From Gemmatimonadota bacterium (GTDB lineage: Bacteria > Gemmatimonadota > Gemmatimonadetes > Palauibacterales > Palauibacteraceae), in assembly GCA_963666735.1 (NCBI GenBank), contig OY762926.1, positions 672,001 to 736,000 on the forward strand: a stretch of DNA of 64,000 nucleotides, read 5' to 3'. A program made the position numbers and the translations under genes. Numbering within the stretch: position 1 is the stretch's first letter; each line of letters starts with the position of its first letter. Of this stretch, positions 12,972 to 38,960 are shown one piece after another. The notes under the pieces are model-generated. The model was not told the DNA's origin, ran no database searches, and worked only from the letters and a program-made list of their open reading frames with translations.

Positions 12972-13982
12972 CTACCCGGATGTCCGATGGCCGACTCGAC
13001 GCGCGATTTCGCCGGCCAGTTCCCTGAAGTCCTTGAAGGCCGCTGCCGCCGCCACCGCGTGGCTGCCAATGGCGCCGTCGGCCGGCGAGAGCTTGAAGAT
13101 CGGCTTCCGTGCGTCCTGCCCCAGCGGGACGAGACTACGATAGTGCTTGATGGTCGCGATACAGTTTTCATCCGACTCGGCATTCGGAGCGACATCGGCC
13201 GGCGACTCTTCCAATACGCTACGAGCGTATTCGGCGGGCATCCGCTTGGCCCAGCGATCGTAGGCCCGCACGGGGCGACGGAGCCGCACTCCATGTTGCT
13301 GAATCAGGTAGCCCAACGGCTCCATTCTACCCTTCGGCAACGGAAATCCCGGCTTGTCCCAATTCCTCACGCGCTGGTTCCACTCGTCTCTCCAGCGTCG
13401 CAGCGTCGGCCCAAGGTTGCGGAGTCCCTGGCGCGAGAACAAATCGGCCCCCAGAGGGACGACCACGAAGTCCGTGGCGATGAGGGCGGATCGGTTGATC
13501 GCCCCCAGGCTTGGCCCCACATCGACGAGGACGATATCCGCCCCGCAGCGCTCGGCCCCCCGCTGCAGCACCTGCCAGAAGGCTGTTACAACTCTGAACG
13601 GACGGTACATGTTCCGGCTTCCGAGGCAATTCGGCCATTCCGCGGAGAGAAGGTCCTCGAAGCCGGAGAGCGCGAGGTCCCCTGGTATGAGGCTCAGGGT
13701 GTCGGAAAGGTGCTGCAGGTTGGGCCGCCGGATGTCGCCGACTTGTGCGAGCGGAGCGATGCACTGGGCCATCGTGTCGGTCTTCTCACCCGAGTCGTCG
13801 CGCCACAGTCGCTCCACGATCTCCTCCGACAGGAAGGCCGCCGTGAGGTTGGCCTGCGGATCCAGGTCGACGGCGAGAACGCGGCGATCGAGTTCCGAGA
13901 ACATCCACGCGAGGTGATAGACCAGCGACGTCTTCCCAACCCCCCCCTTGTTGTTGAAGAAGGTGAGCACAGGCACCGTCAT
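12972..13982 (-). CDS. Orphan ParA/Soj-like ATPase (AAA_31)
   Basis: FFNNKGGVGKT deviant Walker A, VDLDPQANLT, PGDLAL, DVGPSLGAINR; ATG overlaps the stop of the upstream gene (ATGA). Confidence 0.9.
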   Translation of the reverse strand: MTVPVLTFFNNKGGVGKTSLVYHLAWMFSELDRRVLAVDLDPQANLTAAFLSEEIVERLWRDDSGEKTDTMAQCIAPLAQVGDIRRPNLQHLSDTLSLIPGDLALSGFEDLLSAEWPNCLGSRNMYRPFRVVTAFWQVLQRGAERCGADIVLVDVGPSLGAINRSALIATDFVVVPLGADLFSRQGLRNLGPTLRRWRDEWNQRVRNWDKPGFPLPKGRMEPLGYLIQQHGVRLRRPVRAYDRWAKRMPAEYARSVLEESPADVAPNAESDENCIATIKHYRSLVPLGQDARKPIFKLSPADGAIGSHAVAAAAAFKDFRELAGEIARRVGHRTSG

Positions 13983-14882
13983 GGCCGAACTCTCACCGTA
14001 CAATTCACCCAGTGTGCGTCGACGTCGAATACCGGCTCGGATTGCCCGTTCTCGATCAGTTTCCGGCGCGCAAGTGGAATGCCGACGCCGTATCGCTGGA
14101 CCAGTCCCAGAGCGCGCATCGCCTCCGCCAGATTGGGATTACGATATGAAACGATACCAGGTCGACCGAAGTTGTCGGTGGTCACACCGCCGTACGGCCC
14201 TCCTGGATTGGTTATCTCGATGCGATCGTCGAACCAGTACACATGGACAGGTGCGTTGACGCCTTCGTAAGTCCGATGCATCACGGCGTTCCGCACCAGT
14301 TGTTGCAATGCCGTCAAGGGGTACGTCCGGCGACGTCGATCTGTATGCCCGGACGCGATGTCGACCGCCGTGCGATTGTTGGCCATCAACTTCTCGTCCA
14401 GGCGGCGCATCATGTGAACGATCGGCCCATCGCACCGAGCTTCGTCCACAATATCGTCGGCCAATGTCGTTCCCGCGATGCGCAGAAACTGGATGTAGGC
14501 GTCCGGAAGGAAGTCCTGGGGGCGCGTGCCGATCACGAGCATGCCGGTGACCGTGGGCAGGGGATCGTCCGCGGTGGCGACCATCTTCGTCGCCGCCAGG
14601 CGCTCCGGAAGGCTGCGCTCGTTACTCTCAAGTACCTCGCGACTCACGGCCTGCGGGAGGTATTCCTCCTCAAACCGCCGCAGGTCGAGATCGCCATCGG
14701 CAGTGGCCGTTGCGAGAGGCTGTGCATCGAACGGCGCATCGCCGTATCGCCGTTTCTCATTGAGAATGCGCTCGTCCTGAGCGGTGGCGATGTCCCGGCG
14801 TGGCCCCACGCGGATCCAGATCCGTGGAGTTGCCCCGCTTTGACGGACACCTATCCATTGGGGTCAAGCAAGGAGGTGTTCC

Positions 14883-15197
14883 ATGGCGGGCCGGAAGGGG
14901 CGGTATCCATCCGAGTACAGGGAGCGGCTGGTGGAACTGGTGAGGGGCGGGCGTAGTGCCGCGTCACTCGCCCGGAAGTTCGAGCCGTCGGAGCAGACGA
15001 TCCGGAACTGGGTCCGGCAGGCGGATGTGGACGAGGGGTTCCGTAGCGACGGGCTGACAACGGAGGCGCGCAGCGAGTTGCGGCGCCTGGAGCGGGAGAA
15101 CAAGCGGCTCAGGATGGAGCGCGACATCCTAAAAAAAGCCGCGGCCTGGTTCGCGAGGGAGAGCGGATCGATCCCCGGCGGGGGTATGCGTTCATGA
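14883..15197 (+). CDS. IS3 transposase OrfA (HTH + leucine zipper)
   Basis: YPSEYRERLV..SEQTIRNWVRQ, ELRRLERENKRLRMERDILKKAAAWFA; AAGGAGG RBS. Confidence 0.94.
   Translation: MAGRKGRYPSEYRERLVELVRGGRSAASLARKFEPSEQTIRNWVRQADVDEGFRSDGLTTEARSELRRLERENKRLRMERDILKKAAAWFARESGSIPGGGMRS
15131..15138 (+). other. Programmed -1 frameshift slippery site AAAAAAAG (OrfAB fusion)
   Basis: A7G run in ILKKA; the -1 frame is open into OrfB (in frame with ATG 15194). Confidence 0.8.
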
Positions 15198-16042
15198 GGG
15201 CGCACCGGGCCGAGTTCCCGCTTCGGGCCATGTGCCGGGTGCTGGGTCTCTCCCCCAGCGGCTACTACGACTGGTTGAGGCGTCCTCCCTCGGACCGCGC
15301 GCGTCGGGACGCGGAACTGGAGGCCCGGATCGCGAAGATATGGACCGGCAGCGGCGAGACGTACGGCCGTCCGCGGATCCACGCGGCGCTCAGGGCCGAG
15401 GGCGAGCGGGTGGGGCAGAAGCGCGTGGGGCGGCTGATGAGGGGGCTGGAGATCGAGGGCGCGACCAGGCGGCGCTTCAAGACGGCGACGACGAAGAGGG
15501 ATACCGAGGCCCGCCCCGCGCCGGACCTGGTGGACCGTGACTTCTCGGCCTCGGGGCCCGACGAGCTGTGGGTGGCCGACATCACCTACGTCCCCACGTG
15601 GGCTGGCTGGCTGTATCTGGCCGTCGTGCTCGACGTCTGGAGCCGCCGCGTCGTCGGCTGGGCCATGGCGACGCACATGCGGACCGAGCTCGTCGAGACC
15701 GCGCTGGCGATGGCTCTCGCAAGGCGTCGTCCCGAGGGTCGTGTCGTGCATCATTCCGACAGGGGCTCGCAGTACACCTCGCTCGCCTTCGGGGAGCGCT
15801 GCCGCGAGTCGGGCATCGCCCAGTCCATGGGCTCGGCGGGCGATGCGTACGACAACGCCATGTGCGAGAGCTTCTTCGCCACCCTCGAGTGCGAGCTGAT
15901 CTGGAAGCGCTCGTTCCGCACGGCGGATGAGGCGCGACGGGAGGTCTTCGGCTTCATCGAGGGCTTCTACAACACCCGGCGGCTGCACTCGGCACTCGGC
16001 TACGAGTCGCCGGCCGACTACGAGAGCAACCATGCGGCCTGA
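15194..16042 (+). CDS. IS3 transposase OrfB (integrase core, DDE)
   Basis: YGRPRI, WVADITY, HHSDRGSQY, DNAMCESFF, YNTRRLHSALGY.SP. Confidence 0.95.
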   Translation: MRAHRAEFPLRAMCRVLGLSPSGYYDWLRRPPSDRARRDAELEARIAKIWTGSGETYGRPRIHAALRAEGERVGQKRVGRLMRGLEIEGATRRRFKTATTKRDTEARPAPDLVDRDFSASGPDELWVADITYVPTWAGWLYLAVVLDVWSRRVVGWAMATHMRTELVETALAMALARRRPEGRVVHHSDRGSQYTSLAFGERCRESGIAQSMGSAGDAYDNAMCESFFATLECELIWKRSFRTADEARREVFGFIEGFYNTRRLHSALGYESPADYESNHAA

Positions 16043-16643
16043 GGCGCACCCGCGGCGCGCACCGACATCCTCTCCCGAGCGCCTGAGGGAGGCTGAAAGG
16101 AGAAGAACCGGAGGCGATCAACCACAGAAACTAACCGTCCGTGAAAGCGGGACAGCTCCACCGCCCTTTGAAGCGAACGGGAGGGGAATCGGATGGCTGG
16201 ACGGTGATCACTGCGATATCGGCACCGTGTAAATTGCATCGCTGGACAGAAAGTGACGGTGGTGGAACCGTGTTCCCGTCGGTCTTGATGTCGGACAGCT
16301 GCCGAAGCAGTTCATCCGTGATCTCCAGTCCCGTTGGGGTTCCTTTGTCGGTTGCCCCTACGAAGACGACCCTCGGTTGACCGTGGCCGGGGAGATCGTT
16401 CGCCATCGCGCATACGGCCTGCCTGATCGTCTTCCGTGCGTCTCCCGCGAGCGATTCCTTTCTTTCGACGAGGTCGGACTCGATGTCTGCCAGCATGATT
16501 TCGAGTTCATCGTCGGAATAGGCCAAGTTCATCGCTCGGGATCGAAAGGTTGTCATCGCGGGGCGGCCCCGGCCGCCATACCGATGCATCATATGCCAAC
16601 GAGCTGGCCAGACGCGAGTTTCGGGGACGCGCCGGGCACCGTT

Positions 16644-16672
16644 TTGACAACCCCGGAGCGCGGGCCTAGCTT
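16644..16672 (+). promoter_or_regulatory. Sigma70-type promoter for the kdsB operon
   Basis: TTGACA (16644-16649), 17-bp spacer, TAGCTT (16667-16672), about 40 bp upstream of kdsB. Confidence 0.65.
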
Positions 16673-16713
16673 CTTGCGATGCCGCTTCGGACCGACTCCC
16701 GGCCTCCCCAGCG

Positions 16714-20017
<3,304 letters not shown>

Positions 20018-20030: not shown

Positions 20031-20603
20031 ATGAATCCGAGACCGCCGATGGATCGCCGATTAGCGGAGTCCGTTCGCTTCGTGTCCCTCGATGTGGACG
20101 GCGTGCTCACGGACGGTTCGATCTGGGTCGGCGCGGACTCGGCCCTCGGCGCACCGCGGGATCTGCGTCGCTTTCACGCCCTCGATGGCCTGGCGATCCG
20201 GATGATGCAGCGGGCGGGCCTCGTGATCGCGTTCCTCAGTGGCAAGCGCTCGGCCGCCGTTCGCCTGCGGGCGCGCGAGCTGGACATTGCGGAGGTTTCG
20301 CTCGGTTCCCGAGAGGGAAAGCTTTCGGCCCTTCGGGGTATGCTGGCGCGATGCGGTTGCACCTGGGACCAGGCTGCGCACCTTGGCGACGACCTCACGG
20401 ACCTGGCCGTCATGGAACGGGTGGGGTTGCCGGCCGCCGTCGTCGGCGCCGTGCCCGAAGTCCGGGCCGGCGCGACGTGGGTGGGGACGGTGCCCGGCGG
20501 GGAAGGGGCCGTGCGCGAATTTGCGGAAGCCCTGCTCGTCGCCCGAGGGGAGTGGGATGGGCTGGTTACGGAGTTCCGGGAAGGAGGACGGTTTGCGGGT
20601 TGA
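20031..20603 (+). CDS. kdsC: KDO-8-phosphate phosphatase (HAD)
   Basis: LDVDGVLTDG, F...DG.AI, GDDLTD, GGEGAVRE. Confidence 0.93.
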   Translation: MNPRPPMDRRLAESVRFVSLDVDGVLTDGSIWVGADSALGAPRDLRRFHALDGLAIRMMQRAGLVIAFLSGKRSAAVRLRARELDIAEVSLGSREGKLSALRGMLARCGCTWDQAAHLGDDLTDLAVMERVGLPAAVVGAVPEVRAGATWVGTVPGGEGAVREFAEALLVARGEWDGLVTEFREGGRFAG

Positions 20604-21558
20604 GGGGGTTGAAAGGCGGGAGCGTGCGGGCAGCGCGCGCGCGCGAAAGAGTGGGACCGACACGCTGGGGGGACCGGCGCGCCTCAGCCTGTTCGCCTGG
20701 GTTTCGCTGCTGCCCTTATTCGCCGCGTGCGGGTCCGGCGATGCGCCTCCGACCGCGAGCGAGCCCCTGCCCGAAGGGGTGGATACCGCCGTTCGAGGGA
20801 TGCGGACGTTCGTTACGCGCGACGGAATCCGGCGCGCGGTCGTGGACGCCAATACGGCGGAGTGGCACGCGGAGAACGAGATTCACCTGCGGGAGATGAC
20901 GCTGACCTTCTTCGATCCGCGCGGAATGGAATCGACGGAGGTGACCGCGGAGTTCGGGATCTTCCATCAACTCACCGGCGACCTCGAGGCCGAGGGGCAG
21001 GTGGTCGTGGAGGACCGTCTGGACGACCAGCGTCTCGAGACGGAGCGTCTCCGATATCAGAATCTCGATGGTCGTCTGTACGGCGATACCGCGTTTCGTC
21101 TCCTGCGGGGGGTGGAGGGTCTGACCCTCGACGGGACGGCGTTCGAGTCGGATCCGTCGCTCGACTCGGTCGTCGTCCTGAATCAGGCAGGAGAGATGCT
21201 ACCCCAGGTCGTCTACTCGGAGGCGATTCCCCTGCCGGCGGATCCGGTCGGGGATACCGCGGGAGTCGCCGAGGAGCCCGTTGCCGAGGCGCGGGGCGCG
21301 GACGAACCGGCGCCGGTGGACTCGACGGCGGCGGAGATCGATCCGGCGGCGCTCCCGGCGCAGGATTCCGCGGCGGCGGCGGCGGACAGTACGGGGATAT
21401 TGCCCGACAGCGTGACGGCGCGCGCGGACAGTGCGACCGTGCTGCCCGACACGACGGAAGCCCCGGCGGACAGCCTGGCGGCGCCCCCCGACACGACGGG
21501 AGCCCTGCCGGACAGCCTGGCGGCGCCCCCCGATACCACCGCGGCGACGCGCCCGTGA
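20593..21558 (+). CDS. lptC: LPS export protein LptC-like lipoprotein with a low-complexity D-S/T-rich tail
   Basis: Position kdsC-X-X-lptB; lipobox-like LFAA-C; LTFFD...VTAEFG...GQVVV...LETERLRY; TTG 20593 after GGAGG (start uncertain). Confidence 0.75.
   Translation: MRVEGVERRERAGSARARKSGTDTLGGPARLSLFAWVSLLPLFAACGSGDAPPTASEPLPEGVDTAVRGMRTFVTRDGIRRAVVDANTAEWHAENEIHLREMTLTFFDPRGMESTEVTAEFGIFHQLTGDLEAEGQVVVEDRLDDQRLETERLRYQNLDGRLYGDTAFRLLRGVEGLTLDGTAFESDPSLDSVVVLNQAGEMLPQVVYSEAIPLPADPVGDTAGVAEEPVAEARGADEPAPVDSTAAEIDPAALPAQDSAAAAADSTGILPDSVTARADSATVLPDTTEAPADSLAAPPDTTGALPDSLAAPPDTTAATRP
21445..21539 (+). repeat. 42-bp tandem repeat (about 2.3 copies) encoding PDTT.A..DSLAAP
   Basis: CGGACAGCCTGGCGGCGCCCCCCGA identical at 21467 and 21509. 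Confidence 0.85.
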
Positions 21559-23441
21559 GTCGCGGACGCATCAGGTTGTTGAGCTGTCTGGCGCTGGCGA
21601 CATGGCTCGCCGGCCCGCTCGTCGCGCAGGAGCCCGAGGCGGGCGTCGGGTCGGCGCTCAACCGGTGCAATCTCCGATGGAGCCCGCTTGAAGCCGACAC
21701 GAGGAGCGTCACGAACCGGGATGTAGCGGGGGCGCACGTCACCCATCTCAGCGGCCGATACCTGTGGACCTGCGGAACCGCCACGATGGAGGCGGACAGC
21801 GCGATAAAGCGCGACGGTCCCCGGCAGGTCGAGCTGCTGGGCGCGGTCGTCTACGCAGATTCGATACGGACGCTGAAGTCGGAGCGGCTCCTGTACTTTC
21901 AACTCTCCGATTTCATCATCGCCGAGGAAACCGTCGAACTCGTCCGTCTGACGGATCGCTCCACCCTCATCGGCCCCCGCGTGGAGTTTCTGCGAGCCGT
22001 CGCCGGCATCGACGCCGTCACGACCGCGCCCGGGCGGCCGACCGTTACGTTCTATCCGACAAACACCGAGTCGCCCGAGCCGTTCACGGTCGAGTCGGAG
22101 CTGGCCATCTTCGCCGGGGAGGACGAGGCCCGCTTCTACGGGGACGCGGTGATCGTCCGGAGCGATCTCAACGCCCAGGCCGACAGCGCCATGCTCACTC
22201 GCGCCGATGGTCTCGGCGTCCTGTGGGGCGAGCCGTGGATCGAGGCCGAAGGAATCCGGCTGGAGGGCGATTCGATACGGTTCGTTTCCCAAAACGAGGA
22301 ACTCGAGGAAATTCACGCTGTCGGAGACGGGTATGCGGCGGGGGAGAGATTCGAGGTGGCGGCGGAGTTGATCGACATCGATCTGGAGAATCGCGAGGTG
22401 GAGCAGGTGCAGGCTCACGGAGAGGGTGTGAGCCGGGCGCTCTCCGGCAGCCACGAGCTGCGGGGCGACTCGATTCATTTCGTGATGTACGGGAGCCGGA
22501 TCGACACGGCATATGCGGTCGGCGGTGCGGTCGCGGTCCAGCGTGACTCGTCCTGGATCGTGCCGCCCGCGCAGGAGTCGGCGATGGCCGATTCGACGGC
22601 CACCGACTCGACCGTCGCCGATTCCACCGTCGCCGATTCGACCGCCAGCGCCAGCGACTCGACCGCCACGGACTCGACGGCTGCCGCGCAGCAGGCGCCC
22701 GACGCTCCCGCCCCGACGGACTCCGCCGGAGTCAGCGCGGACACCACGGCGGGCACAGCGGCGGACGCAACGGCAGACACCGCGGAAGCGGAGGCGGAGG
22801 ACGATGGGCCCTCGGAGATCGAGCTGGCGACCGATGGCTCCGCGAACTGGGCGCGCGGCGATACGCTCATCGCGGTCTTCGAGCGCTCCGCCGCACCGGT
22901 CGCGGACTCGGCTCCGGCGTCCGACCCCTTCATGCGGCAACTCGTGCTCGGCGGAAACGCCAGCGCCCTCTACCGGATGGTACGGGATTCGACGACGAGC
23001 GCACGACCTTCGCTGAACTATCTCGTGGCGCGGCGCATTCAGGTGGATTTCGAGGCGGGAGAACCCACGGCGGTCGAGGGCGAACACGCCATCGGCGCCT
23101 TTCTGGAGCCGCGGGAGGCGTTCGGGATTCCGTCGCCGGCGGATAGCGCGGCGGCGGCCGACAGCGCGACAGTGGCGGATAGCGCGGCGGCCGTGGCCGA
23201 TAGCGCGGAGGCTGCGGCCGCGGGCGACTCGCTGGGTGCGCTTCCGGACACGTCGGACGTCCGGCCCGACAGCACAACGACGCCACCCGACACGGTCGGC
23301 GCGCCTCCGGACACCGCGCGCCGGCGCGGACACCACCGGAGCGGGGATGTGCGGCTTGCCCTGCGTGCTCGCCAACCGGGGCGGGAGCGGCGCGTGGTGT
23401 CCGGCGCGTCTCCCGTCCTCAGACCCGGGAGATCGTGTTGA
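21555..23441 (+). CDS. lptA: Extended LptA/OstA-like periplasmic beta-jellyroll protein with two D-S/T-rich inserts
   Basis: Signal peptide ([18 protein letters not shown]); repeated ADSA/GDSI/GDTL jellyroll-like segments; lies between lptC and lptB. Confidence 0.65.
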
Positions 23442-24163
23442 GCAGTGTACTTCGGGCCGACGGCCTCGTCCGCTCCTTCAAGCGGCGCTGCGTCGTGAAC
23501 CAGGTGGAGATCGAGGTGCGGCAGGGGGAGGTCGTCGGGCTGCTCGGCCCCAACGGCGCGGGGAAGACGACGACCTTCTACATGATCGTCGGCCTGCTCA
23601 AGGCGGATGAGGGTCGCGTCTACCTCGATGACGACGAACTCACGAGTTGGCCCATGTACCGGCGGGCGCGCGCCGGCATCGGGTATCTCCCCCAGGAGGC
23701 GTCGGTCTTCCAGAAGCTCACGGTCGAACAGAACGTGATGGCGATCCTCGAGACCATCAAGATGACGCGGCAGGAGCGGCGCGACCGCCTCGAGGAGTTG
23801 CTCGACGAATTGTCCATCAAGCACCTTCGGGCGAACAAGGCCTATTCGCTCTCCGGGGGAGAGCGGCGGCGGCTCGAGATCACGCGGGCGCTGGCGACCC
23901 GCCCCAAGTTCCTGCTGCTCGATGAACCCTTCACCGGGGTCGACCCGATTGCGATCGATGACATTCAGCGCATCGTGCGGGGCCTGAGGGACAAGGGTCT
24001 GGGGGTTCTCATCACCGACCACAACGTGCGCGAGACGCTGTCGATCACGGACCGCGCGTACCTCCTGTTCGAAGGCAGGATCCTGGTGCAGGGCGAGGCG
24101 GACCACCTCGTGAACGACCCGGAAGCCCGGCAACTGTACCTCGGGGAGGACTTCAGGCTCTGA
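23435..24163 (+). CDS. lptB: LPS export ABC ATPase
   Basis: [60 protein letters not shown]. Confidence 0.97.
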
Positions 24164-24165
24164 AC

Positions 24166-25614
24166 ATGGCATCGGGACGGCCGAATCTCTCCGCGGGTCC
24201 CCACCTGCGGCAGGAACAGAAGGCGCAGCCTCGCCTCTACCAGGCGATGGACCTTCTGCACATGCCGCTGCTCGATCTTCAGGGCCACCTGAGACAGGCA
24301 CTCGTCGACAACCCGTTCCTCGACCTCGTGGAACCCGGAGATGAGCCGGACGGCCCCGATGGCCCGCGTGACTCCCCGGCCGATGAGGCGGCCGACGACC
24401 CCGCGGAGGAAGTGGACTGGGAGGATGTTCTCCTCGACGACTTCGATGCGGGCGGGCGGCCCGAGGAATACGGCGACCGGGAGTACTACACGCCCGTGCC
24501 GGCCGCCACGCAGAGTCTCTGGGATCATCTCCACGAGCAGTTGAACCTGCTCCGCCTCGGCGAGCGTCAGCTGCTGGTCGGCGAAGAGATCATCGGGAAC
24601 GTGGACCGCGACGGGTTCCTCTCATGTTCGCTCGACCGGATTCTGGAGGCCCTGAAGGCACGGCTGGAGGGTCGGCCGGATGCGGCGTGGACCATCTCGC
24701 GGGACGACGTCGAGGAGATGCTTGCCCGAGTCCAGTCCTTCGAACCGAGCGGAATCGCGGCCCGGGACCTGCGCGAGACGCTCCTGCTGCAATTGAGAGA
24801 CCGGCGGCGGGAGGCGTCGCTGGCCTACCGTATCGTCGACGGGCACTTCGACGACCTCGCGAACCATCGGTGGACCGAGTTGGCGGAGGAATACGGAGTC
24901 ACGCCGCGCGAAGTGCAGGCGGCGGCGGATGAGATCGCGAAGCTCGACCCCAAGCCCGGTCTCAGGTATGCGGACACGTCGGAATCCTACGTGATCCCGG
25001 ACCTGACGGTGCAGAAGGTCGAGGGGCGGTACCGCGTCTCACACGCGGACACGTCGCTGCCGCGACTGAAGATCTCGCCGGTCTACCGGGACGTGGCCGC
25101 GGATCGCGCCCGGTTCCAGGGGGAAAACAGGGTGTTCATCTCGGAGAGGCTGAACAGTGCCCGGTGGTTGATCCAGGCGATCGAGCAGCGTCGCCGGACG
25201 ATGCTGAGGGTGATGGATTTCATCGTCGAACGGCAGCGCGACTTCTTCGAGCAGGGTGTCGAACACCTGCGGCCGCTCACGCTTCGGGATGTGGCCAAAC
25301 ACATCGAAATGCACGAATCCACCGTCTCTCGCGTGACGAACGGAAAGTACGTGCAGACGCCGCGCGGACTCTATCCGCTCAAGTTCTTCTTTTCGGGCGG
25401 CTATTCGATGCGCGGGGGTGAAGACGTGTCGTCGGAGGGAGTGCGGGCCCGGATCCGCAAGCTGGTGGCGGAGGAGGACCGCACGGCGCCGCTCAGCGAC
25501 CACGAGATCACCGCCCGCCTGCAGAAGACGGGGGTCCGGATCGCGCGCCGCACGGTGGCGAAGTACCGGGACCGGCTCGGGATCCTCCCGGCGCGGCTGC
25601 GGAGGCGCGTATGA
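24166..25614 (+). CDS. rpoN: RNA polymerase sigma-54 factor
   Basis: LRPLTLRDVA..IEMHESTVSRV, RpoN box ARRTVAKYR. Confidence 0.97.
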   Translation: MASGRPNLSAGPHLRQEQKAQPRLYQAMDLLHMPLLDLQGHLRQALVDNPFLDLVEPGDEPDGPDGPRDSPADEAADDPAEEVDWEDVLLDDFDAGGRPEEYGDREYYTPVPAATQSLWDHLHEQLNLLRLGERQLLVGEEIIGNVDRDGFLSCSLDRILEALKARLEGRPDAAWTISRDDVEEMLARVQSFEPSGIAARDLRETLLLQLRDRRREASLAYRIVDGHFDDLANHRWTELAEEYGVTPREVQAAADEIAKLDPKPGLRYADTSESYVIPDLTVQKVEGRYRVSHADTSLPRLKISPVYRDVAADRARFQGENRVFISERLNSARWLIQAIEQRRRTMLRVMDFIVERQRDFFEQGVEHLRPLTLRDVAKHIEMHESTVSRVTNGKYVQTPRGLYPLKFFFSGGYSMRGGEDVSSEGVRARIRKLVAEEDRTAPLSDHEITARLQKTGVRIARRTVAKYRDRLGILPARLRRRV

Positions 25615-26549
25615 GGGGCGAGGTGCGGGACCCGGGGATCTCGGTCATCGTCCCCGCCTACGACGAAGCCGAGAACATGCCCGAGTTGTTCGCGGAACTC
25701 GCGGCGACGTTCGCGGAGCACGATCTCGCGGCCGAGGTCGTTTTGGTCGACGATGGTTCCGGCGACGGGACGGCCGAGGCCGCCGAGGAGGCGGCGGCGC
25801 GGGTGGGGCTGGGCGGCGGGGCCGTCGTGCTTCGGCATCGCGCGAACCGGGGGAAGACGGAGGCGATGCTCACGGCCGCGGCGGCCGCCCGCGGCGAGTA
25901 CCTCGTCCTCTTCGACGCAGACCTGCAGCATTCCACGGAGGAGATCCCGCGCTTCGCGGCGATGCTGGACGAGGGTTACGACCTCGTCGCGGGCCGCAAG
26001 GTGGGGCGCTACGAGAAGCGCTTCATCTCGTCCATCTACAACCGGCTCGCGCGTGCGATCTTCAAGGTGCCGGTTCGCGACCTCAACTCCATGAAGGCGT
26101 TTCGGGCCGATGTCCTCACGGGCCTCAGGCTGCGGCACGACTGGCACCGCTATTTAGTCGTGCTCGCCCATGCCCGCGGATACCGGCTCGGCGAGCTGGA
26201 CATCGACCTCCTGCCGAGACGGCACGGCGAGCCCAAGTTCTCCGGGCGCCGGCGAATCCTGATCGGGATGCTGGATCTGGTCTCCGTGTGGTTCCAGCTC
26301 GTGTTCGGACGCAAGCCGCTGCTCTTCTTCGGCACGAGCGGCCTCGCGATGATCGCGGCCGGCTGCGTCACGGGGCTCGCGGCCCTCGCGCTGCGCTTCG
26401 GGTTCGGCCTCGGGTATCGTCCGCTGCTCACGCTCGTACTTCTTCTGGTCGTGGGAGGCCTCCTCCTCTTTGTGCTGGGGTTCCTCGCGGAGACGATGGC
26501 GCAGCTGCGGGACGAGATCGAGGAGCTCAAGCGCGGCGGAATCCGGTGA
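25611..26549 (+). CDS. GT2 glycosyltransferase (polyprenol-phosphate glycosyltransferase-like, C-terminal TM helices)
   Basis: SVIVPAYDE, VDDGS.DGT, DADLQH, RRHGEPKF. Confidence 0.92.
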   Translation: MRGEVRDPGISVIVPAYDEAENMPELFAELAATFAEHDLAAEVVLVDDGSGDGTAEAAEEAAARVGLGGGAVVLRHRANRGKTEAMLTAAAAARGEYLVLFDADLQHSTEEIPRFAAMLDEGYDLVAGRKVGRYEKRFISSIYNRLARAIFKVPVRDLNSMKAFRADVLTGLRLRHDWHRYLVVLAHARGYRLGELDIDLLPRRHGEPKFSGRRRILIGMLDLVSVWFQLVFGRKPLLFFGTSGLAMIAAGCVTGLAALALRFGFGLGYRPLLTLVLLLVVGGLLLFVLGFLAETMAQLRDEIEELKRGGIR

Positions 26550-27781
26550 GGGTCGTTCATGTCGTCACGGCCTTCCCCCGCCATGACGACGACGTGATCA
26601 CCCCGTGGCTCGGAAGATTGTTGCTCGGCCTGTGTGAACGGGGCGTGGACGTCGAGGTACTGGCGCCCGCCTACCGGGGTGGGGGCGCGACGGAGTGGCG
26701 AGACATTCCCGTGCGCCGCTTCCGGTACGCCCCGGCCCGGCTCGAAACCCTCACGCACGAGGAGACCGCACCGGACCGTCTTCGCCGCCGGCCGGCCTAC
26801 GCCGCGCTTCTGCCGGGGTACATGCTGGGCGGCAGCCTGGCGTCGATCGGTCTCGGGACGTCGCCGCCCCCGGACGTGGTCCATGTGCACTGGCCGGTTC
26901 CACACGGCTGGTTCGGGGCCCTGGCGCGCGCCTCATCGGAACGGACGGCCGTGGTTTCGAGCTTCTATTCCGTCGAAATCCGCTGGATCGAACGTCGTCT
27001 CCGGTGGGCCGTACCGTTCCTGAGCTGGTCGATCGAGAGTGCCGACGCCGTGACGGCCATCTCGACCGCCACGGCCGCGGCCGTGGCTCGGTACACGTCG
27101 CGGGAGGTGCCCGTGATTCCCTTCAGCGCGGCCATCTCCGATCGATCGCTACCCGGGAGCATGACCGCCGAGGCCCGGCCGCTGGAGCGCGGGGGACGGG
27201 TGCGACTTCTCTTTGTGGGCCGCCTTGTGGAGCGGAAGGGCGTGCATATCCTGATACGTGCGCTGGCTCGCGTCCGTGAGCGCGTCGACGCGACGCTCAC
27301 GGTGATCGGCGATGGGCCCCAGGCCGCCCCGCTGGAAGCGGAGGCCCGCCGCGTCGGCGCCGACGCCTTCGTCCGCTTCGAGGGCCGAGTCGGTGAAGAA
27401 GCGCTCGCAGAGGCGTACCGGACGAGCGATCTCTTCATCCTTCCGGCGGTCGTCGACGGGAAGGGCGACACGGAGGGGCTCGGCGTGGTTCTCCTCGAAG
27501 CGCTCGAATTCGGGTTGCCGCTGATCGCGTCCGATGTGGGAGGAATCCCGGACATCGTGAGGCATGGCCAGACGGGGCTGCTGGTACCGCCCGGCGAGGT
27601 CGGCGCGCTGGCGCGCGCCATCGTGCAGGTGATCGAAGACCCCGCCGCGGCACGGGAACGGGTCGAGAGGGGAAGGGCGCACATGCGCGAACACTTCGGG
27701 CTGCCGCAGGTGGTGGATCGGCTCGTGCGCCACTACGAGCGCGCCGTGGCCGTCCGGCGCGGATTCAAGACGGGCGCATGA
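26546..27781 (+). CDS. GT4 glycosyltransferase
   Basis: HVHWP, LFVGRLVERKG, EGLGVVLLEA, SDVGGIPDIV. Confidence 0.92.
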   Translation: MRVVHVVTAFPRHDDDVITPWLGRLLLGLCERGVDVEVLAPAYRGGGATEWRDIPVRRFRYAPARLETLTHEETAPDRLRRRPAYAALLPGYMLGGSLASIGLGTSPPPDVVHVHWPVPHGWFGALARASSERTAVVSSFYSVEIRWIERRLRWAVPFLSWSIESADAVTAISTATAAAVARYTSREVPVIPFSAAISDRSLPGSMTAEARPLERGGRVRLLFVGRLVERKGVHILIRALARVRERVDATLTVIGDGPQAAPLEAEARRVGADAFVRFEGRVGEEALAEAYRTSDLFILPAVVDGKGDTEGLGVVLLEALEFGLPLIASDVGGIPDIVRHGQTGLLVPPGEVGALARAIVQVIEDPAAARERVERGRAHMREHFGLPQVVDRLVRHYERAVAVRRGFKTGA

Positions 27782-28704
27782 TGCGGTTGGCGGTCGTCCG
27801 CTGGTATCTCTACGCCCTGTATCTGCGTTGCGTCAGGCTCAGAGACCGGTTGCTGCGTCCGCGGGCGCTCGCGGAGGTCGATGCCAATCTCGCTCACCTG
27901 CTGCTCGCGGAATATGGGGAGGCGGTCGGGGATCCCGACGGGCGCGGATACAGGGAATTCCTCCGACGGCGCGAATTCAAGGTGTCCTCCCAGAACGGAG
28001 AGGACGGCCTCCTGGCTTTCATCTTCTCCGAGATCGGCGTGACGAACCGAAGATTCGTGGAATTCGGCGTGGGCGACGGCCGCGAGTGCAACTGTGCCAA
28101 TCTGGCGACCTGGTTCGGATGGAGCGGCCTGATGCTCGAGTCCGATGCCGCGGACGCGCGGCGAGCCCGCGAACGCTATGCCCGGTTGGAGAGGCGCGAT
28201 GGGACCGTCGTAGAGGTCCAACGAGCGCATGTGACCGTCGAGAATATCAACGAGACGATCTCGGGCGCCGGGGCGCACGGCGAGATCGATCTTCTTTCGA
28301 TCGACGTAGACGGGAACGACTACTGGCTCTGGGAAGCGCTCGATGTCATCGAGCCGAGAGTTGTCGTGATCGAGTACAACGCGTCCTTCGGGCAGCGACC
28401 GGTCAGTGTCCCCTACGACCCCGGTTTTGTCCGTTTTCGCAAGCACCGAAGCGGCTGGTATCACGGCGCGTCGCTGGCTGCTCTGGCGAGACTGGGGGAG
28501 CGGAAGGGTTACGACCTGGTCGGGACGGACAGCCGGGGCGTCAATGCCTTCTTCGTTCGCGCGGACGCGCGGCGCGGATGCCTCAGAGCCGTGAATGCGG
28601 AAGAGGCATATTATCCGCAGAAGAAACGTCTCGCGGTTGCAACGGTCGAACAGCAGTTCGAGGCTATTCGGCACCTTGATTTCGTCGAGATCCGAACGCC
28701 ATGA
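27778..28704 (+). CDS. FkbM-like methyltransferase-fold protein
   Basis: SQNGEDG, FVEFGVGDG, LLSIDVDGNDYW, VVVIEYN, GVNAFFVR. Confidence 0.75.
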   Translation: MMRLAVVRWYLYALYLRCVRLRDRLLRPRALAEVDANLAHLLLAEYGEAVGDPDGRGYREFLRRREFKVSSQNGEDGLLAFIFSEIGVTNRRFVEFGVGDGRECNCANLATWFGWSGLMLESDAADARRARERYARLERRDGTVVEVQRAHVTVENINETISGAGAHGEIDLLSIDVDGNDYWLWEALDVIEPRVVVIEYNASFGQRPVSVPYDPGFVRFRKHRSGWYHGASLAALARLGERKGYDLVGTDSRGVNAFFVRADARRGCLRAVNAEEAYYPQKKRLAVATVEQQFEAIRHLDFVEIRTP

Positions 28705-28869
28705 CGACGGACGCGCGATACTGGAGCGAACGGCATTTCGCATCTCTCACAGTCTGGGCCACCGCGCACTTCGGGCGCCGATGGGTCGGGGTGGGGCCGG
28801 GTCCGGCTGCGTCGGGGCGGAAGCAACCCGGGTCGATTGTCGTGAGAATGCCAACGGGAGAGACCTGAA

Positions 28870-29856
28870 TTGTCCAGCAGCCCGATGCCCGCCGAACCCT
28901 CAACCCCGAAGGCGGCGGTGGAAGTTTGCGAGTTCTGTGGCGGGATGTCCGTTGCGGTCAGATACGATTTCGGGCCGCAACGGATTCTGCGGTGCAGGAA
29001 CTGCACGTTCATGTGGCTGACACCGAGACCCTCCGAAGCTGAACTGAAGGAAATCTACGGCGTCGACTATTTCCGTAACCGAGACTTCTTCGATGCGGAC
29101 AACGACACGCTGTATGGATACTACGATTATTTTTCCGAACGCTTCATCAAACAAATGGACCACCAGCGGATCGTGGATCGACTCGCCGGTCCGAGGCCGG
29201 TTTCGGGTGCTCCACGTCGCAGGTTCCTCGACATCGGATGCGGTCTTGGATACTTGCTCGATGTCGCGCACGACCGCGGATTCGACGTCGAAGGGGTTGA
29301 GTACAACCCCGCTGCCGCAGACTGGATAGCCTCCAAGTACCAGTTCCGGGTCTTCTGTGGGGACTTCATGGCGCACGAAGGAGGGCCCTTTGACGTGGTT
29401 GCGATGCTCGACGTGATAGAACACCTGCCGCAACCCTTCGACGCCCTCGACAAGGTCGCCGCCGTTACCAAACCCGGTGGAGTGTTCGTCGTTTCCACGA
29501 TGGACTCCGATTCGCTCGTGTCCCGTTTGATCGGTAAGCGACTCGAGGATTTTCGGAGGACGAGGGAGCACTTGTACTTCTTCAACCGGCGGTCGCTCGG
29601 CGCCGCCCTGGAACGTGCCGGCTTCGATGTCCTGCGAATCGAATCCTACGGACTCACGATTCAGTTGGATTTTCTGGCGGCCAGGATGCGACTGGCTTTT
29701 CCGGTGGTCGGTGCCCTGTTTGAGAAATTTGTGCGCTGGCTTCGCTTGTCCAATCGTCGCTTCCGATTCGATCCGCGCACGAAGATGATCGTATTTGCGC
29801 GGCGCCGCGAAATCGCCGGCGAAAGAGCCCCGGACGCCTCACCGGCCGTGCGATGA
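28870..29856 (+). CDS. Class I SAM-dependent methyltransferase with N-terminal Zn ribbon
   Basis: CEFCG..CRNC, LDIGCGLG, DVIEHLP.P, EHLYFF. Confidence 0.88.
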   Translation: MSSSPMPAEPSTPKAAVEVCEFCGGMSVAVRYDFGPQRILRCRNCTFMWLTPRPSEAELKEIYGVDYFRNRDFFDADNDTLYGYYDYFSERFIKQMDHQRIVDRLAGPRPVSGAPRRRFLDIGCGLGYLLDVAHDRGFDVEGVEYNPAAADWIASKYQFRVFCGDFMAHEGGPFDVVAMLDVIEHLPQPFDALDKVAAVTKPGGVFVVSTMDSDSLVSRLIGKRLEDFRRTREHLYFFNRRSLGAALERAGFDVLRIESYGLTIQLDFLAARMRLAFPVVGALFEKFVRWLRLSNRRFRFDPRTKMIVFARRREIAGERAPDASPAVR

Positions 29857-31433: not shown

Positions 31434-33820
31434 TCCCGAATCATCGTTCGCATATCGTCTGGTGGTTTCTGGGAGCGGCCGCGCTCGTCACGGTGCTCTT
31501 CTACCGCGATTTCATCTTCCACCCGGAGCGGCTCCTCTTCGGGTCGGACATGCTGTTCGAGGGGATCTCGCTGCGGCGGTTCTACGTGGACGAGGTTCTG
31601 GCGGGCCGCGGCGTGCCGCTCTGGGTTCCGCACGTCTACGGAGGCATGCCGTTCGTCGCGATCCTTCCGGGGCCCATCTTCTATCCGTCGACGATCCTCT
31701 ACTTCCTGTTGCCGCTGCACCGGGCCATCGGCTGGACCTTCGTTCTACACACATTTCTGAGCGGGGCGTTCGGCTACTTCCTCGGGCGTTCGTTCCGGCT
31801 CCGGCCGGCCTCCGCCGCAGTCTGCGGAGCCTCCTTCCTCCTGGCCGGCTACGTGACGTCCCACCTGTTCGGAGGACAGGATGGGCGGATGTTCACGATG
31901 ACGCTCATCCCGCTTGCGCTCGGCCTGCTCAACCGCGGGCTGGAGAGGAACGAGTTCCGGTGGTTCGCCGGCCTGGCGTTCGTCATCGCGGCGCAGACGT
32001 TTTCGGCACACGTACAGATGATGTACTTCTCCAGCCTCGCCCTGGCAGCCTTCCTCGTGTATCACGTGGCCTTCCGGCTCCCCCGGCCGGCGTCGGCCGA
32101 GGTGCCCCGGAGGGCCCACCTCCGCCCGCTCGCGTGGTTCGCGCTCGCGAACGTGGCCGCGGTCCTGGTCGCCGCGCCCCAGTTCTTCGCGACACTGACG
32201 GTCCTCGATGACGTCACGCGCGCGGCGGGGGAGCGGGGCTACGAATTCGCGGCCTCCTGGGCTTTGCCGCCACAGGAGCTCACGGCGTTTTTCCTGCCGG
32301 ATCTCGTCGGTTCGCTTCCGGGGTCCTATTGGGGACAGAACCCGATCAAGCTGCACACGGAATACCTCGGCGCCGTCCCGCTCGCGCTCGCGATTCTCGG
32401 CTTATCGGCGGGCTTCGGCCGCTCGCTGGATCGCGATCACAAGAAGGTCGTATGGTTTCTTGGCGGCGCCGGCCTGCTGGGCGTCCTGTTCGCGCTCGGA
32501 GCCGCGACGCCCGTGCATCGCATTGCGTATACGCTGCTGCCCATGATGTCGAGCCTGCGAGCTCCGTCGATGATGTTGGGTCCCGTGACCGTGTTCGTTG
32601 CCCTGCTCGCCGCCTTTGGATGGGAGGCGGCGCTGAACCGTCGTGCCGCCGCCGGTACGGCATCGGACGATGGGACCAGTCGGAATGCCGCCTCGCGTCG
32701 TTGGTCCTGGCCCGTGCTCCTGCTCGGGGGGCCGATTCTTGTGCTTGGCGCGGCGGCGGTGCTCAACCCACGGGGGCTGGCCAACTTCGCGTTGCTCTCG
32801 TGGTATCCCGAGGGTTGGCCGCGCCAGCCGTCGGCGGTCTCGATCGATGCGCTGCGTCTCAACGGCCTGTTTCTCCTTGCGGGTTTCGGTCTCGCGTGGG
32901 GCGCCGCCCGGGGAGTGGCGCGCCACAAGTTCGGCGTCTGGACGCTGGTTGTCGTGCTCGCGTTCGGGATCATGGACCTGTGGCGCGTGGACGCGCGCTA
33001 CCTGAGGGTGCAGGCCGCCGGCGCCACGCTCGCGACCGACCCCGTCATCGAAGCCCTGTACGAGAACGCGGAGCCGGGGCAGCGCGTGTGGGCGCCGAAT
33101 CTGCCCGGCCGTGCACCCAACTACCGCCCGAACCAGCTTGCCTACTACGGCGTGTCATCCGCGGGCGGACTTCAAAAGTTTATCCTGCGCCCGTACGCGA
33201 GACTCGTCGGCGGAATCACGCCGGACGAGGGGCTGCTCCGGCATCCGGTCGTTCGTCAGTTGCTGAACGTCCACCATCTTATTACGCCCGGCGTGCAGGA
33301 GGGTGTCGAATCGATGGCGGAGGCGGACGGGCGCCATCTCTACGAACTGTCTGCGGAGCTTCCGTACGCCTACTTCCCGGTCGGTATCGAGATGGTTGAT
33401 GATACCGTCGCCGCCGTTGCGCGCACGCTCGAGGTGTCGGATCCCGCGCGGTTGACGATCGTCGAAGCCCGGGCAGACGGCGAAGCTCCGGCGGCGGGGC
33501 AGGGGAGGGCGTCGCTCGTTCAGCACGAGCCCGATCGCGTGGTGCTGGAGGTCGCGGCGGACCGCGGGGGCCTGCTCGCGGTGAGCGAAATCCATCACCG
33601 GCGTTGGAAGGCCTTTCTCGATGGGGAAGAGGCAGGGGTGTGGCGGGTGAATACGGCGTTCCGCGGCGTTGAAGTGCCCGCCGGGAGGCATGAACTCGTC
33701 TTCGAGTACCGGAGCCCTCCGTTCAGCCTCGGTGTCTGGGTCAGTCTCCTGACGATCGCGGGTCTCCTGGTGAGCATCCTGATCTCCTGGCGGCGTCGGC
33801 CCCGAGGATCGGAAGCGTGA
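31430..33820 (+). CDS. YfhO-family GT-C membrane protein
   Basis: PLW.P..YGGMPF, FYP, YLGAVPL; C-terminal WKAFLDG..VNTAFRGVEVPAGRHELVFEY. Confidence 0.85.
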   Translation: MIPNHRSHIVWWFLGAAALVTVLFYRDFIFHPERLLFGSDMLFEGISLRRFYVDEVLAGRGVPLWVPHVYGGMPFVAILPGPIFYPSTILYFLLPLHRAIGWTFVLHTFLSGAFGYFLGRSFRLRPASAAVCGASFLLAGYVTSHLFGGQDGRMFTMTLIPLALGLLNRGLERNEFRWFAGLAFVIAAQTFSAHVQMMYFSSLALAAFLVYHVAFRLPRPASAEVPRRAHLRPLAWFALANVAAVLVAAPQFFATLTVLDDVTRAAGERGYEFAASWALPPQELTAFFLPDLVGSLPGSYWGQNPIKLHTEYLGAVPLALAILGLSAGFGRSLDRDHKKVVWFLGGAGLLGVLFALGAATPVHRIAYTLLPMMSSLRAPSMMLGPVTVFVALLAAFGWEAALNRRAAAGTASDDGTSRNAASRRWSWPVLLLGGPILVLGAAAVLNPRGLANFALLSWYPEGWPRQPSAVSIDALRLNGLFLLAGFGLAWGAARGVARHKFGVWTLVVVLAFGIMDLWRVDARYLRVQAAGATLATDPVIEALYENAEPGQRVWAPNLPGRAPNYRPNQLAYYGVSSAGGLQKFILRPYARLVGGITPDEGLLRHPVVRQLLNVHHLITPGVQEGVESMAEADGRHLYELSAELPYAYFPVGIEMVDDTVAAVARTLEVSDPARLTIVEARADGEAPAAGQGRASLVQHEPDRVVLEVAADRGGLLAVSEIHHRRWKAFLDGEEAGVWRVNTAFRGVEVPAGRHELVFEYRSPPFSLGVWVSLLTIAGLLVSILISWRRRPRGSEA

Positions 33821-34818
33821 CCGCGGGCCGCGCCGGCGCCACGCCGGGGCGCCGGTGGGTCGCGTTTGGAACCGCCGTCTTTCTCCTCGCCGCCCTGGCC
33901 GCGGTCGGCTTGGCGTTTTCCGGCAGTTGGGCCGCGTGGGGGGACCTCGAGGCATCGGGCATGTCCCGCTGGCGAGTGCGGCCTCTTTGGCTGGCCGCTG
34001 CGGTCGGTTGCGAAGTGGCGGCCCTCTGCGCGAGCGGTATGATCTGGGCCTGGCTGTTCCGGAGGGCGGGCGGCAGGGCGGGGGTTCCGGAAGCGGCCGC
34101 GGCGTGGCTCGGTTCCAATCTCGGCCGTTATCTGCCGGGAAAGATCTGGCAGGTCACCGGGTTGGTGGCCTACGTCCGGGGCCGGGGGGATTCCGGCGCG
34201 ACGGCCTTCACCACGCTCATCGCCTTCCAGGCCGCCGTTGTAGCTACGGGTGTCTCCCTGGCCCTCGCAGTGCTCGGCGCCGGCGCGTTCGAGGGAGTAG
34301 GCAGGTGGCCGCTGGTCGCGGGCGGCCTGGCCCTCGCCGCCGCGCTTACGCCGCCCGTCCTGCGCTTCGTCATGCGAATGGGGCGTCGCCTGCTGCGCGA
34401 GACAACAGCGCACGGCGATGCCGAGCTGGACGGGGGACTCCTGTGCCGCGCGGTGCTGGGAAGCCTGTTGATCTGGCTCCTCCACGGGCTCGGTTTCCTG
34501 GCGTTGCTCGAAGGGTTGGTGCTCGAAAACACGATCGGTTTCGCGATGGCCCTGGGCGTCTTTTCGGGATCCTACGTGGTGGGCTACGCGGCTCTGGTGG
34601 CACCCGGAGGGCTGGTCGTGCGTGAGGGCGCGATCATCGGCCTGCTGACCGCGATGACCGCGATTCCGGCCGGACCTGCGGCCGCGCTCGCGTTGGCGGC
34701 CCGCCTCTGGACGACGGCCGCGGAGTTGACCTCCTTCGGCCTGGCCGTGGCCTTCCGGCGATCCGCGGGGGCACAACAGGATGATTCGCGGATGCGGGAT
34801 TCGCCCGGGAGTCGATAA
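33817..34818 (+). CDS. Lysylphosphatidylglycerol-synthase-TM / flippase-like membrane protein
   Basis: NLGRYLPGKIW, APGGLVVREG, ARLWTT. Confidence 0.8.
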   Translation: MTAGRAGATPGRRWVAFGTAVFLLAALAAVGLAFSGSWAAWGDLEASGMSRWRVRPLWLAAAVGCEVAALCASGMIWAWLFRRAGGRAGVPEAAAAWLGSNLGRYLPGKIWQVTGLVAYVRGRGDSGATAFTTLIAFQAAVVATGVSLALAVLGAGAFEGVGRWPLVAGGLALAAALTPPVLRFVMRMGRRLLRETTAHGDAELDGGLLCRAVLGSLLIWLLHGLGFLALLEGLVLENTIGFAMALGVFSGSYVVGYAALVAPGGLVVREGAIIGLLTAMTAIPAGPAAALALAARLWTTAAELTSFGLAVAFRRSAGAQQDDSRMRDSPGSR

Positions 34819-34830
34819 GTTGTCGGCCTA

Positions 34831-35622
34831 ATGAGCCCCGACAGATCCGCTGCCTCGCCCCCGGATTCCGACCGGGATCGCATCTCCGCTTCCGCTGCCA
34901 CAGGCAGCGGGCGCGGGCTCGTCATCCTTCCCACGTACAACGAGATCGATTCGATCGCCGGGATCGTAGAGCGCGTGCTGGCGCGGGACGGCCGGCTCTC
35001 GGTCCTCGTCGTCGACGACGCATCTCCCGATGGCACGGGCGCCCTCGTTGACTCGCTTGCCGCCGCGGAACCGCGCGTGAACGTTCTGCACAGGGAAGGG
35101 AAGTCGGGGCTCGGGACCGCCTACATCGCGGGTTTCCGCTGGGCGCTCGAGCGGGATTTTGAGTGGATCTTCGAGATGGACGCCGATGGATCGCACGACG
35201 CGCGGTATCTTTCCGACATGATCGCGGCGACCGCCCGCTTCGATGTCGTCGTCGGATCTCGTTATACTGCGGGGGTGAACGTCATCAACTGGCCGATGTC
35301 GCGTCTGCTCCTCAGCTACTACGCGAACAAGTACGCGCGCATCGCCACGGGACTGCGCCTCGCCGACTCCACGAGCGGCTTCAAGTGCTTCGCGCGCCGC
35401 GTGCTGGAGACGATCGACCTCGACCGCGTGGGGTCGACCGGGTACACGTTCCAGATTGAAATGAACTTCCGCGCCTGGAAGAAAGGGTTCCGCGTAGGGG
35501 AAGTGCCCATCGTGTTCACCGACCGCCGCCTCGGACAGAGCAAGATGTCGGGGGCGATCGTGCGTGAGGCGGTGTGGCGGGTGTGGGCGCTGCGCCTGCG
35601 GTCCCTCATCGGGAGGCTGTGA
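34831..35622 (+). CDS. Polyprenol monophosphomannose synthase (DPM1-like GT2)
   Basis: ILPTYNE, VVDDASPDGTG, GLGTAY..GF, EMDADGSH, DSTSGFKCF, GY.FQIEM, F.DRR.G.SKMS. Confidence 0.92.
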   Translation: MSPDRSAASPPDSDRDRISASAATGSGRGLVILPTYNEIDSIAGIVERVLARDGRLSVLVVDDASPDGTGALVDSLAAAEPRVNVLHREGKSGLGTAYIAGFRWALERDFEWIFEMDADGSHDARYLSDMIAATARFDVVVGSRYTAGVNVINWPMSRLLLSYYANKYARIATGLRLADSTSGFKCFARRVLETIDLDRVGSTGYTFQIEMNFRAWKKGFRVGEVPIVFTDRRLGQSKMSGAIVREAVWRVWALRLRSLIGRL

Positions 35623-38859: not shown

Positions 38860-38960
38860 GAGGGGGCGGGCGCCCTCCGCTGCCCGGATTGAACTCTCGA
38901 GCTCGGCGGAGTGTTCTCTTGGCGAGCAAACCTCCCGGTTTCACTCCCGACCCTGGATGC

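Follow-up and report, generated by a model that had tools for sequence, protein, structure and literature searches.

The window, by which we mean the whole 64,000-nt stretch of Gemmatimonadota DNA that was analysed, carries the gene order kdsB-pyrG-kdsA-kdsC-lptC-lptA-lptB-rpoN (pyrG was named from sequence alone), followed by glycosyltransferase genes on the same strand. Its relevant features are the following.

20593..21558, + strand: lptC, 321 aa, above the cut-off for PF06835 and TIGR04409
20779..21180, + strand: beta-jellyroll domain of LptC (AlphaFold and Foldseek)
21181..21555, + strand: Ala/Pro-rich tail of LptC, predicted to be disordered; 21253-21540 holds 11 D-(S/T)-(A/V/L/T) triplets
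21555..23441, + strand: LptA/OstA-like protein of double length, placed by its position between lptC and lptB and a weak family match
23435..24163, + strand: lptB, cytoplasmic ATPase, 0 permitted triplets, serving as internal negative control
25611-26549, + strand: GT2, ArnC/GtrB-like, in the same-strand run
26546-27781, + strand: GT4, in the same-strand run
29853-31433, + strand: PMT_2 membrane GT-C-type gene, above cut-off, candidate alternative or accessory transferase
31430-33820, + strand: YfhO-like membrane GT-C-type gene, below cut-off, candidate alternative or accessory transferase
33817..34818, + strand: LPG_synthase_TM-like membrane protein, below cut-off
34831..35622, + strand: GT2, Dol-P-Man-synthase-like (best solved relative 5mlz, E 1.8e-24), candidate lipid-mannose donor synthase

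The stretch after rpoN (25611-35622) runs through the GT2, the GT4, two methyltransferase-like genes, PMT_2, the YfhO-like, the LPG_synthase_TM-like and the Dol-P-Man-synthase-like gene. Elsewhere in the window, ParA-like and ATPase-like ORFs (named from their appearance only) occupy the minus strand at 12972-16943, and a transposase-like gene pair at 14883-16042 is flanked by two ORF pieces of similar appearance, as if an insertion had split a gene.

The lptC frame probably starts at the TTG at 20593, with AGGAGG upstream at 20582-20587, and closes at the TGA at 21556-21558. A lipobox cysteine, Cys46 (20728-20730), invariant in 29 homologues, predicts a lipoprotein. The preliminary description had called the protein LptC, and the two family profiles, the fold, the structural matches and the lpt gene order all agree with that name. 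AlphaFold run on the single sequence was uninformative (mean pLDDT 42), and we used instead a model built on a 29-sequence alignment, in which the beta-jellyroll is confident and the tail has no secondary structure (pLDDT about 45-55); the top Foldseek matches of this model were LptC chains (6mjp_C, E 1.9e-7). Relatives with 81-98% LptC identity carry the names Ca. Palauibacter or Gemmatimonadota, and the host belongs to the Gemmatimonadota, not the Bacteroidota. The jellyroll domain itself has three additional permitted triplets (20782, 21085 and 21163). At LptC residues 87-90 (about 20851-20862 of the window), 28 of 30 homologues have A/G-D-T-A, and A-N-T-A is found here and in the nearest relative; because the alignment with E. 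coli LptC was not significant, we do not equate this site with the LptC site of Prevotella.

The tail triplets are DTA at 21253, DST at 21319, DSA at 21364, DST at 21385, DSV at 21406, DSA at 21427, DTT at 21448, DSL at 21469, DTT at 21490, DSL at 21511 and DTT at 21532, identical one by one to those listed in the preliminary description. The spacings are 22 and 15 residues and then seven residues eight times, giving nine 7-spaced copies and confirming that the motifs are mostly seven residues apart. Within the last 102 aa, which include 28 Ala and 14 Pro, 11 of 13 Asp precede Ser or Thr, and Lys and Arg are nearly absent. In 100,000 shuffled versions of the tail the mean was 1.26 triplets and the maximum six, none reaching 11. 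The third residue is permitted in 11/11 cases, as had also been claimed, though 51% of all tail residues are of a permitted kind; with this background, and with the last copies lying in a tandem repeat, the third-residue match is weaker evidence than it appears. The repeat at the end of the array is visible in the DNA (period 42, 2.6 copies, 83% matches), and the copies are therefore not independent of one another.

The lptC gene was located in 29 of the 31 genomes searched. A long tail was present at all 19 loci of the genus, ranging from 55 to 308 aa, and at no other locus seen; in the sister family the tail measures 16-22 aa (11/11 loci), and none of 28 wider Gemmatimonadota loci has a tail of more than 40 aa. 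LPS transport elsewhere thus does without this extension. A frameshift or assembly artefact was ruled out as the source of the tail, which is in frame at 19/19 genus loci. Across these 19 tails, which come from related genomes and are not independent counts, Ser or Thr follows 204 of 270 Asp versus 16 of 125 Glu, the third residue is permitted in 185 of the 204 triplets versus a background of 49%, and the spacing is seven in 101 cases and six in 24. Ser (100) and Thr (104) are used about equally, with Ser codons of both the TCN and the AGY type. Seventeen of the tails exceed at least 99% of their shuffles and two are not above them; some use Gly, Ser or Pro as third residue (3/12 permitted at locus L017), and in one lineage (L012 and L013) a D-K variant has been propagated. 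These counts support the view that the tail triplet is kept as a motif while its flanks drift, and that it is specific for Asp.

The tail of LptC is not the richest carrier in this genome. The highest triplet counts belong to the LptA-like protein (26), a Big_5 lipoprotein (26) and LptD (14), all of which exceed LptC and extend the preliminary description; LptC itself and a TonB_C lipoprotein (10) also stand at the top.

G000:C1:859576-861045: Big_5 lipoprotein, 26 triplets, elsewhere in the genome

The LptA-like protein has 29 D-S/T pairs, 26 of them with a permitted third residue; they lie in the fold, in a linker within the protein and in an array at the C-terminus. Its length is roughly three times that of E. 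coli LptA, with two more D-S/T arrays. Its profile match is weak (LptD_N, E 0.0075-0.039), OstA_2 had no match in the genome and weak, below-cut-off matches in 4 of 21 homologues, and gene position together with these profile matches hints weakly that it is a relative of the Prevotella OstA-like protein. Arrays occur in unrelated exported proteins, namely the LptA-like protein, LptD (PF19838) and the Big_5 and TonB_C lipoproteins, with unit lengths of 5, 6, 7 and 10-11; the clients are predicted to be non-cytoplasmic, LptC by lipobox and fold. The four densest D-S/T clusters lie in LptC, the LptA-like protein, LptD and the Big_5 protein, and a 5-site cluster falls in a protein predicted to be cytoplasmic. 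Other dipeptides form clusters just as often in this genome, so that the number of clusters is in itself no mark of D-S/T. The LptC, LptA-like and Big_5 arrays, in proteins that are otherwise unrelated, finish in similar Pro-Pro-Asp-Thr units followed by Arg. In the TonB_C lipoprotein (region G000:C1:2367015-2367629), ten Arg/Gln-Asp-Ser-Ile/Leu repeats spaced 10-16 residues apart sit in a likely helical stalk, and the gene lies 12 kb from the DUF2723 gene discussed below.

Phylum-wide, the same families were counted in the 30 loci that scored highest in each search. The LptA-like proteins hold 399 triplets versus 65 expected (above expectation in 30/30) and the Big_5 proteins 349 versus 48 (29/30), an enrichment of about 6-7-fold, and the reversed triplet taken as control occurs 34 and 27 times, respectively. 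Triplets with Glu in place of Asp number 17 versus 35 expected in the LptA-like family. LptD was above expectation in 30/30, with an N-terminal cluster in most, and LptC proteins without the tail hold 59 triplets versus 23 expected (above in 27/28). Nineteen LptC and LptA proteins of ten Proteobacteria contain 13 triplets versus 12.9 expected, which argues that the fold does not explain the enrichment.

Enrichment of the sequon in exported over cytoplasmic proteins was the check proposed in the preliminary description, and in this genome it came out negative. With 3,350 genes called by our own hexamer model and the exported class assigned by a heuristic signal-peptide rule, the observed/expected ratio (O/E) in this genome was 0.79 (0.70-0.87) for exported versus 0.90 for cytoplasmic proteins, a ratio of 0.88 (0.77-1.00) in which the LptA-like, LptD and Big_5 proteins are misclassed as cytoplasmic, the gene caller shortening some starts; leaving out the five array proteins gave 0.76 versus 0.85. 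The samples from other genomes span 200-400 kb with 22-85 exported proteins each. A Palauibacter sample (G010) gave 0.68 versus 0.90 (ratio 0.76) and a sister-family sample (G024) 1.04 versus 1.00 (ratio 1.04); three other Gemmatimonadota samples came to about 1.5 in this test, with exported/cytoplasmic ratios of 1.92 (G088), 1.75 (G125) and 1.47 (G164, interval spanning 1). The controls gave 1.05 and 0.71 for two Prevotella records, 0.82 for Azospirillum, 1.06 for Burkholderia and 1.18 for a Hymenobacter plasmid with 19 exported proteins (interval 0.35-3.02); exported O/E was 0.97 in Azospirillum and 0.90 in Burkholderia, on only 22 and 49 proteins. Since both Prevotella records are negative as well, the test is insensitive and neither supports nor refutes use of the sequon in this genome. 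Enrichment is described for nearly all Bacteroidota families, though not all species, in the accessible part of PMC12871550.

Within this genome, D-S/T was not enriched in the low-complexity segments of exported proteins (81 versus 83) or at protein ends. Exported proteins are poor in D-S/T-(A/T/S/V/M) (ratio 0.78, z -4.4, the lowest of 20 first residues), an avoidance that we treat as a lead only because this residue set was picked after earlier counts; when the published set is used instead, Asp comes third (0.90). Exported triplet O/E falls with family size, from 1.06 in 342 singletons to 0.73 in families of 2-4 and 0.60 in families of five or more. Among expanded secreted families that avoid the triplet, a 63-member family has an O/E of 0.47 and others 0.35-0.40, while a 21-member family, at 1.39, does not avoid it. 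In the window, a tandem of three exported proteins, each about 750 aa long (36607-43540), holds 0-1 triplets per protein; the first has DUF5916 and CBM9_1 matches.

Proteins with a homologue in the three other families had triplet counts of 134 versus 118 when exported (n=83) and 165 versus 219 when cytoplasmic (n=256). At aligned positions, the triplet was kept in 38 of 88 exported versus 33 of 143 cytoplasmic cases (Fisher p 0.002), the exported pairs being the less alike (46% versus 53% identity), and in 25/62 versus 31/142 when both partners were predicted to be exported (p 0.01). Pooled control triplets were kept in 38/211 cases in exported pairs, with no like contrast in cytoplasmic pairs, and Pro- and Gly-triplets were kept at 35% and 33% in exported pairs. 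The kept exported sites, which come from 24 proteins and are not independent (six lie in two array proteins), suggest that the triplet in exported orthologues is under apparent purifying selection.

A candidate for the enzyme that attaches the first sugar lies outside the window, 1.7 Mb from lptC and unlinked to it.

G000:C1:2380038-2382365: g2005, TMEM260/DUF2723-like GT-C (PF11028), 775 aa, single copy in the genome

TMEM260 is an O-mannosyltransferase. The intact, stop-free frame of g2005 scores 145 bits against PF11028 (cut-off 24.2) and matches human TMEM260 with E 1.1e-14 as a single sequence and 1.2e-47 as a profile; it also aligns with a Prevotella DUF2723 protein. PF11028 was found in 150 of 151 Gemmatimonadota genomes, often in 2-4 copies, in one of 14 control genomes (Bacteroides thetaiotaomicron) and in five of 72,556 plasmid records, all from Bacteroidota. 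Residues D41, H56 and D500 of g2005 align to human D52, H67 and D441, which are essential in the human enzyme (bioRxiv 10.64898/2026.03.17.711096), and are invariant in an alignment of 88 sequences that includes 87 near-full-length ones of the 150 matches. The human enzyme has further essential residues in R264, Y267 and R355; in the bacterial proteins R239 and R394 do not vary, but they fall outside the parts that could be aligned with the human protein. The accessible text of PMC10214176 merely mentions distant bacterial homologues; activity of a bacterial TMEM260-like protein was not reported in the accessible literature, and a search that excluded subscription papers and bioRxiv supplements returned no report of protein glycosylation in Gemmatimonadota or of a function for bacterial DUF2723. 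The initiating transferase of the Bacteroidota is described as undiscovered, with homologues of eukaryotic O-mannosylation enzymes suggested, in the part of PMC12871550 available to us, and likewise as unknown in that of PMC8729774. That g2005 starts the putative O-glycosylation is, on balance, slightly favoured by these comparisons. In at least 15 of 24 genomes of the same class a DUF2723 gene follows the Big_5 gene at a distance of 5-11 kb downstream, and five of five loci read in other families have the order valS-Big_5-selA-purN-purH-DUF2723; this genome retains the block valS-Big_5-selA-purN-purH with no DUF2723 gene at that spot, and the linkage may be ordinary housekeeping synteny.

A donor for such an enzyme could come from the lptC run. 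The Dol-P-Man-synthase-like gene, the only GT2 compared with dolichol-phosphate-mannose synthase, was present in 31/31 relatives. Linkage could be judged in 22 of these genomes (nine not judgeable): 20 have the gene 12-17 kb downstream of lptC, a range of distances indicating that the middle of the run is variable, and in two it is unlinked. NCBIfam gave no above-cut-off name to any GT2. The Bacteroidota core glycan, Man-Rha-GlcA, begins with mannose (PMC12871550, as far as accessible); towards such a core, the Dol-P-Man-synthase-like gene is the only one that turned up here. In the 94% complete genome, PMT- and STT3-type transferases had no match and were rejected, and Wzy_C (PglL-type) had none either, a search that divergent members could escape; PMT_2 had two matches, of which the one in the window was above cut-off. 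With lpt and kdo genes present, the lack of a Wzy_C (O-antigen ligase/PglL) match would fit rough LPS or a divergent ligase.

Taken together, it is quite probable from the sequence evidence that the triplets are acceptor sites of a Bacteroidota-type O-glycosylation, concentrated in mucin-like arrays. The sequon match, the Asp specificity, the exported carriers, the families shared with P. intermedia and the signs of selection lend partial support to the earlier claim that this system operates in the lineage; the proteome-wide test, negative in this genome, neither supports nor refutes it. The arrays could instead be unmodified low-complexity sequence, one D-S/T unit amplified by replication slippage as a neutral or plain acidic spacer. 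DNA tandem repeats of period 21/42, tail lengths of 55-308 aa within one genus, the D-K variant of one lineage and the missing proteome-wide enrichment in this genome all suit that account, which nevertheless seems unlikely to us, as the triplet prevails in unrelated proteins whose repeat units are 5, 6, 7 and 10-11 long, Asp-S/T stays while the flanks drift with no substitution by Glu, and enrichment and conservation extend to folded domains phylum-wide. More improbable still is that the triplet is favoured on structural grounds in exported, beta-rich proteins, at turns, helix caps and jellyroll strands, and that the tails have copied it: many conserved sites do lie in folded domains, and the TonB_C protein has D-S/T clusters in repeats predicted to be helical, but proteins of ten Proteobacteria with this same jellyroll show chance-level counts (13 versus 12.9), the LptC tail has no predicted structure, and exported O/E is 0.97 in Azospirillum and 0.90 in Burkholderia (22 and 49 proteins).

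Modification by another enzyme, be it the PMT_2 or the YfhO-like GT-C protein of the window, or by a non-sugar chemistry, with the likeness to Bacteroidota convergent or partial, we regard as a minor possibility. In its favour, the PMT_2 (above cut-off) and YfhO-like genes share a same-strand run with lptC and the synthase-like gene, and the TMEM260-like gene is 1.7 Mb distant. Against this stand the match of PF11028, but not PF13231, to B. thetaiotaomicron among the controls, the agreement of the client families with Prevotella and the missing Wzy_C/PglL-type, PMT and STT3 matches in a 94% complete genome.

Under the preferred reading of the triplets as glycosylation sites, the Dol-P-Man-synthase-like GT2 would make polyprenol-phosphate-mannose, which would be flipped outward, the LPG_synthase_TM-like protein being a possible lipid-sugar flippase. 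The g2005 protein would add mannose, as the first sugar, to the Ser or Thr that follows Asp while the exported chain is emerging, and other glycosyltransferases may lengthen the glycan. With eleven copies of the sequon in a predicted floppy tail, LptC is likely to be densely glycosylated there, and the glycans would turn this stretch into a mucin-like bottle-brush next to the LPS bridge. Palauibacter would have multiplied sites in tails and linkers by short tandem duplication, and its expanded paralogue families avoid the triplet; most speculatively, the glycan brush might keep the bridge proteins soluble and guard their free ends against periplasmic proteases. A broader and more tentative version, to which we give somewhat less than even credence, holds that sequon O-mannosylation started by TMEM260/DUF2723 enzymes is common to Gemmatimonadota and Bacteroidota, that its oldest clients are LPS-bridge and Big_5 proteins, and that in Palauibacter the LptC-LptA-LptD bridge is mucin-coated and the sequon purged from expanded secreted enzyme families; if so, the TMEM260/DUF2723 family would supply the transferase that the Bacteroidota system still lacks and would be a bacterial counterpart of a human glycosylation-disorder enzyme.

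The accessible part of the 2025 review PMC12871550 presents the Bacteroidota system as the only sequon-directed bacterial O-glycosylation, and Fibrobacterota is the one other phylum for which it mentions a similar enrichment. Its use by Gemmatimonadota would make the Bacteroidota-type system older and wider than thought, and the LPS bridge here would be a glycoprotein assembly, unlike the proteobacterial model. The TMEM260-like gene offers a directly testable candidate for the missing transferase, and the 11-site LptC tail a ready, high-signal reporter substrate.

PglL-type O-glycosylation, known from Neisseria, Acinetobacter and Burkholderia, acts on periplasmic, Ala/Pro/Ser-rich low-complexity targets and is not known to require Asp. 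The proteins described here resemble its targets in being predicted periplasmic, with sites in Ala/Pro-rich disordered stretches, and differ in their Asp-bound motif and in a genome without a Wzy_C match. The C-terminal edge of LptC contacts LptA, and in E. coli LptC has an uncleaved membrane anchor. The present LptC shares with those of E. coli and Vibrio (3my2, 6mjp) the beta-jellyroll and the order kdsC-lptC-lptA-lptB-rpoN; unlike them, it is a predicted lipoprotein with a C-terminal tail of about 125 aa and triplet enrichment. The g2005 protein matches human TMEM260 (PF11028; PDB 9rql/9rqm/9rqn) in profile and in the aligned Asp/His/Asp, whereas the human enzyme serves IPT domains via a long Pro/Gly signature, unlike the putative g2005 clients, and uses dolichol (accessible parts of PMC10214176 and bioRxiv 10.64898/2026.03.17.711096).

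In the accessible P. intermedia data (PMC10897501), glycosylation is heaviest on an OstA-like protein, with 10 sites, and on a Big_5 lipoprotein, with 7; OstA/LptA-like and Big_5 proteins also lead the triplet count here, at 26 each. LptC, a predicted lipoprotein in P. intermedia too, is glycosylated there at one DTA, and a DUF2723 protein is also glycosylated; in T. forsythia an OstA_2 and a DUF2723 protein have a single site apiece (PMC8550257, likewise seen in part). The putative client families OstA/LptA-like, Big_5 and LptC are shared with P. intermedia, as are, with the Bacteroidota system at large, the D-(S/T)-hydrophobic sequon, an Asp that is not exchanged for Glu and the predicted non-cytoplasmic clients. 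The LFG-type outer-glycan locus (metG-wzx-glycosyltransferases) is not conserved across the Bacteroidota according to the available part of PMC12871550. Unlike in the Bacteroidota, the third residue here is most often T, then L, A and V, and regular arrays in an Ala/Pro tail stand in place of the single LptC site of Prevotella. The putative system is, by sequence, one that resembles that of the Bacteroidota in its working, in a host from a different phylum.
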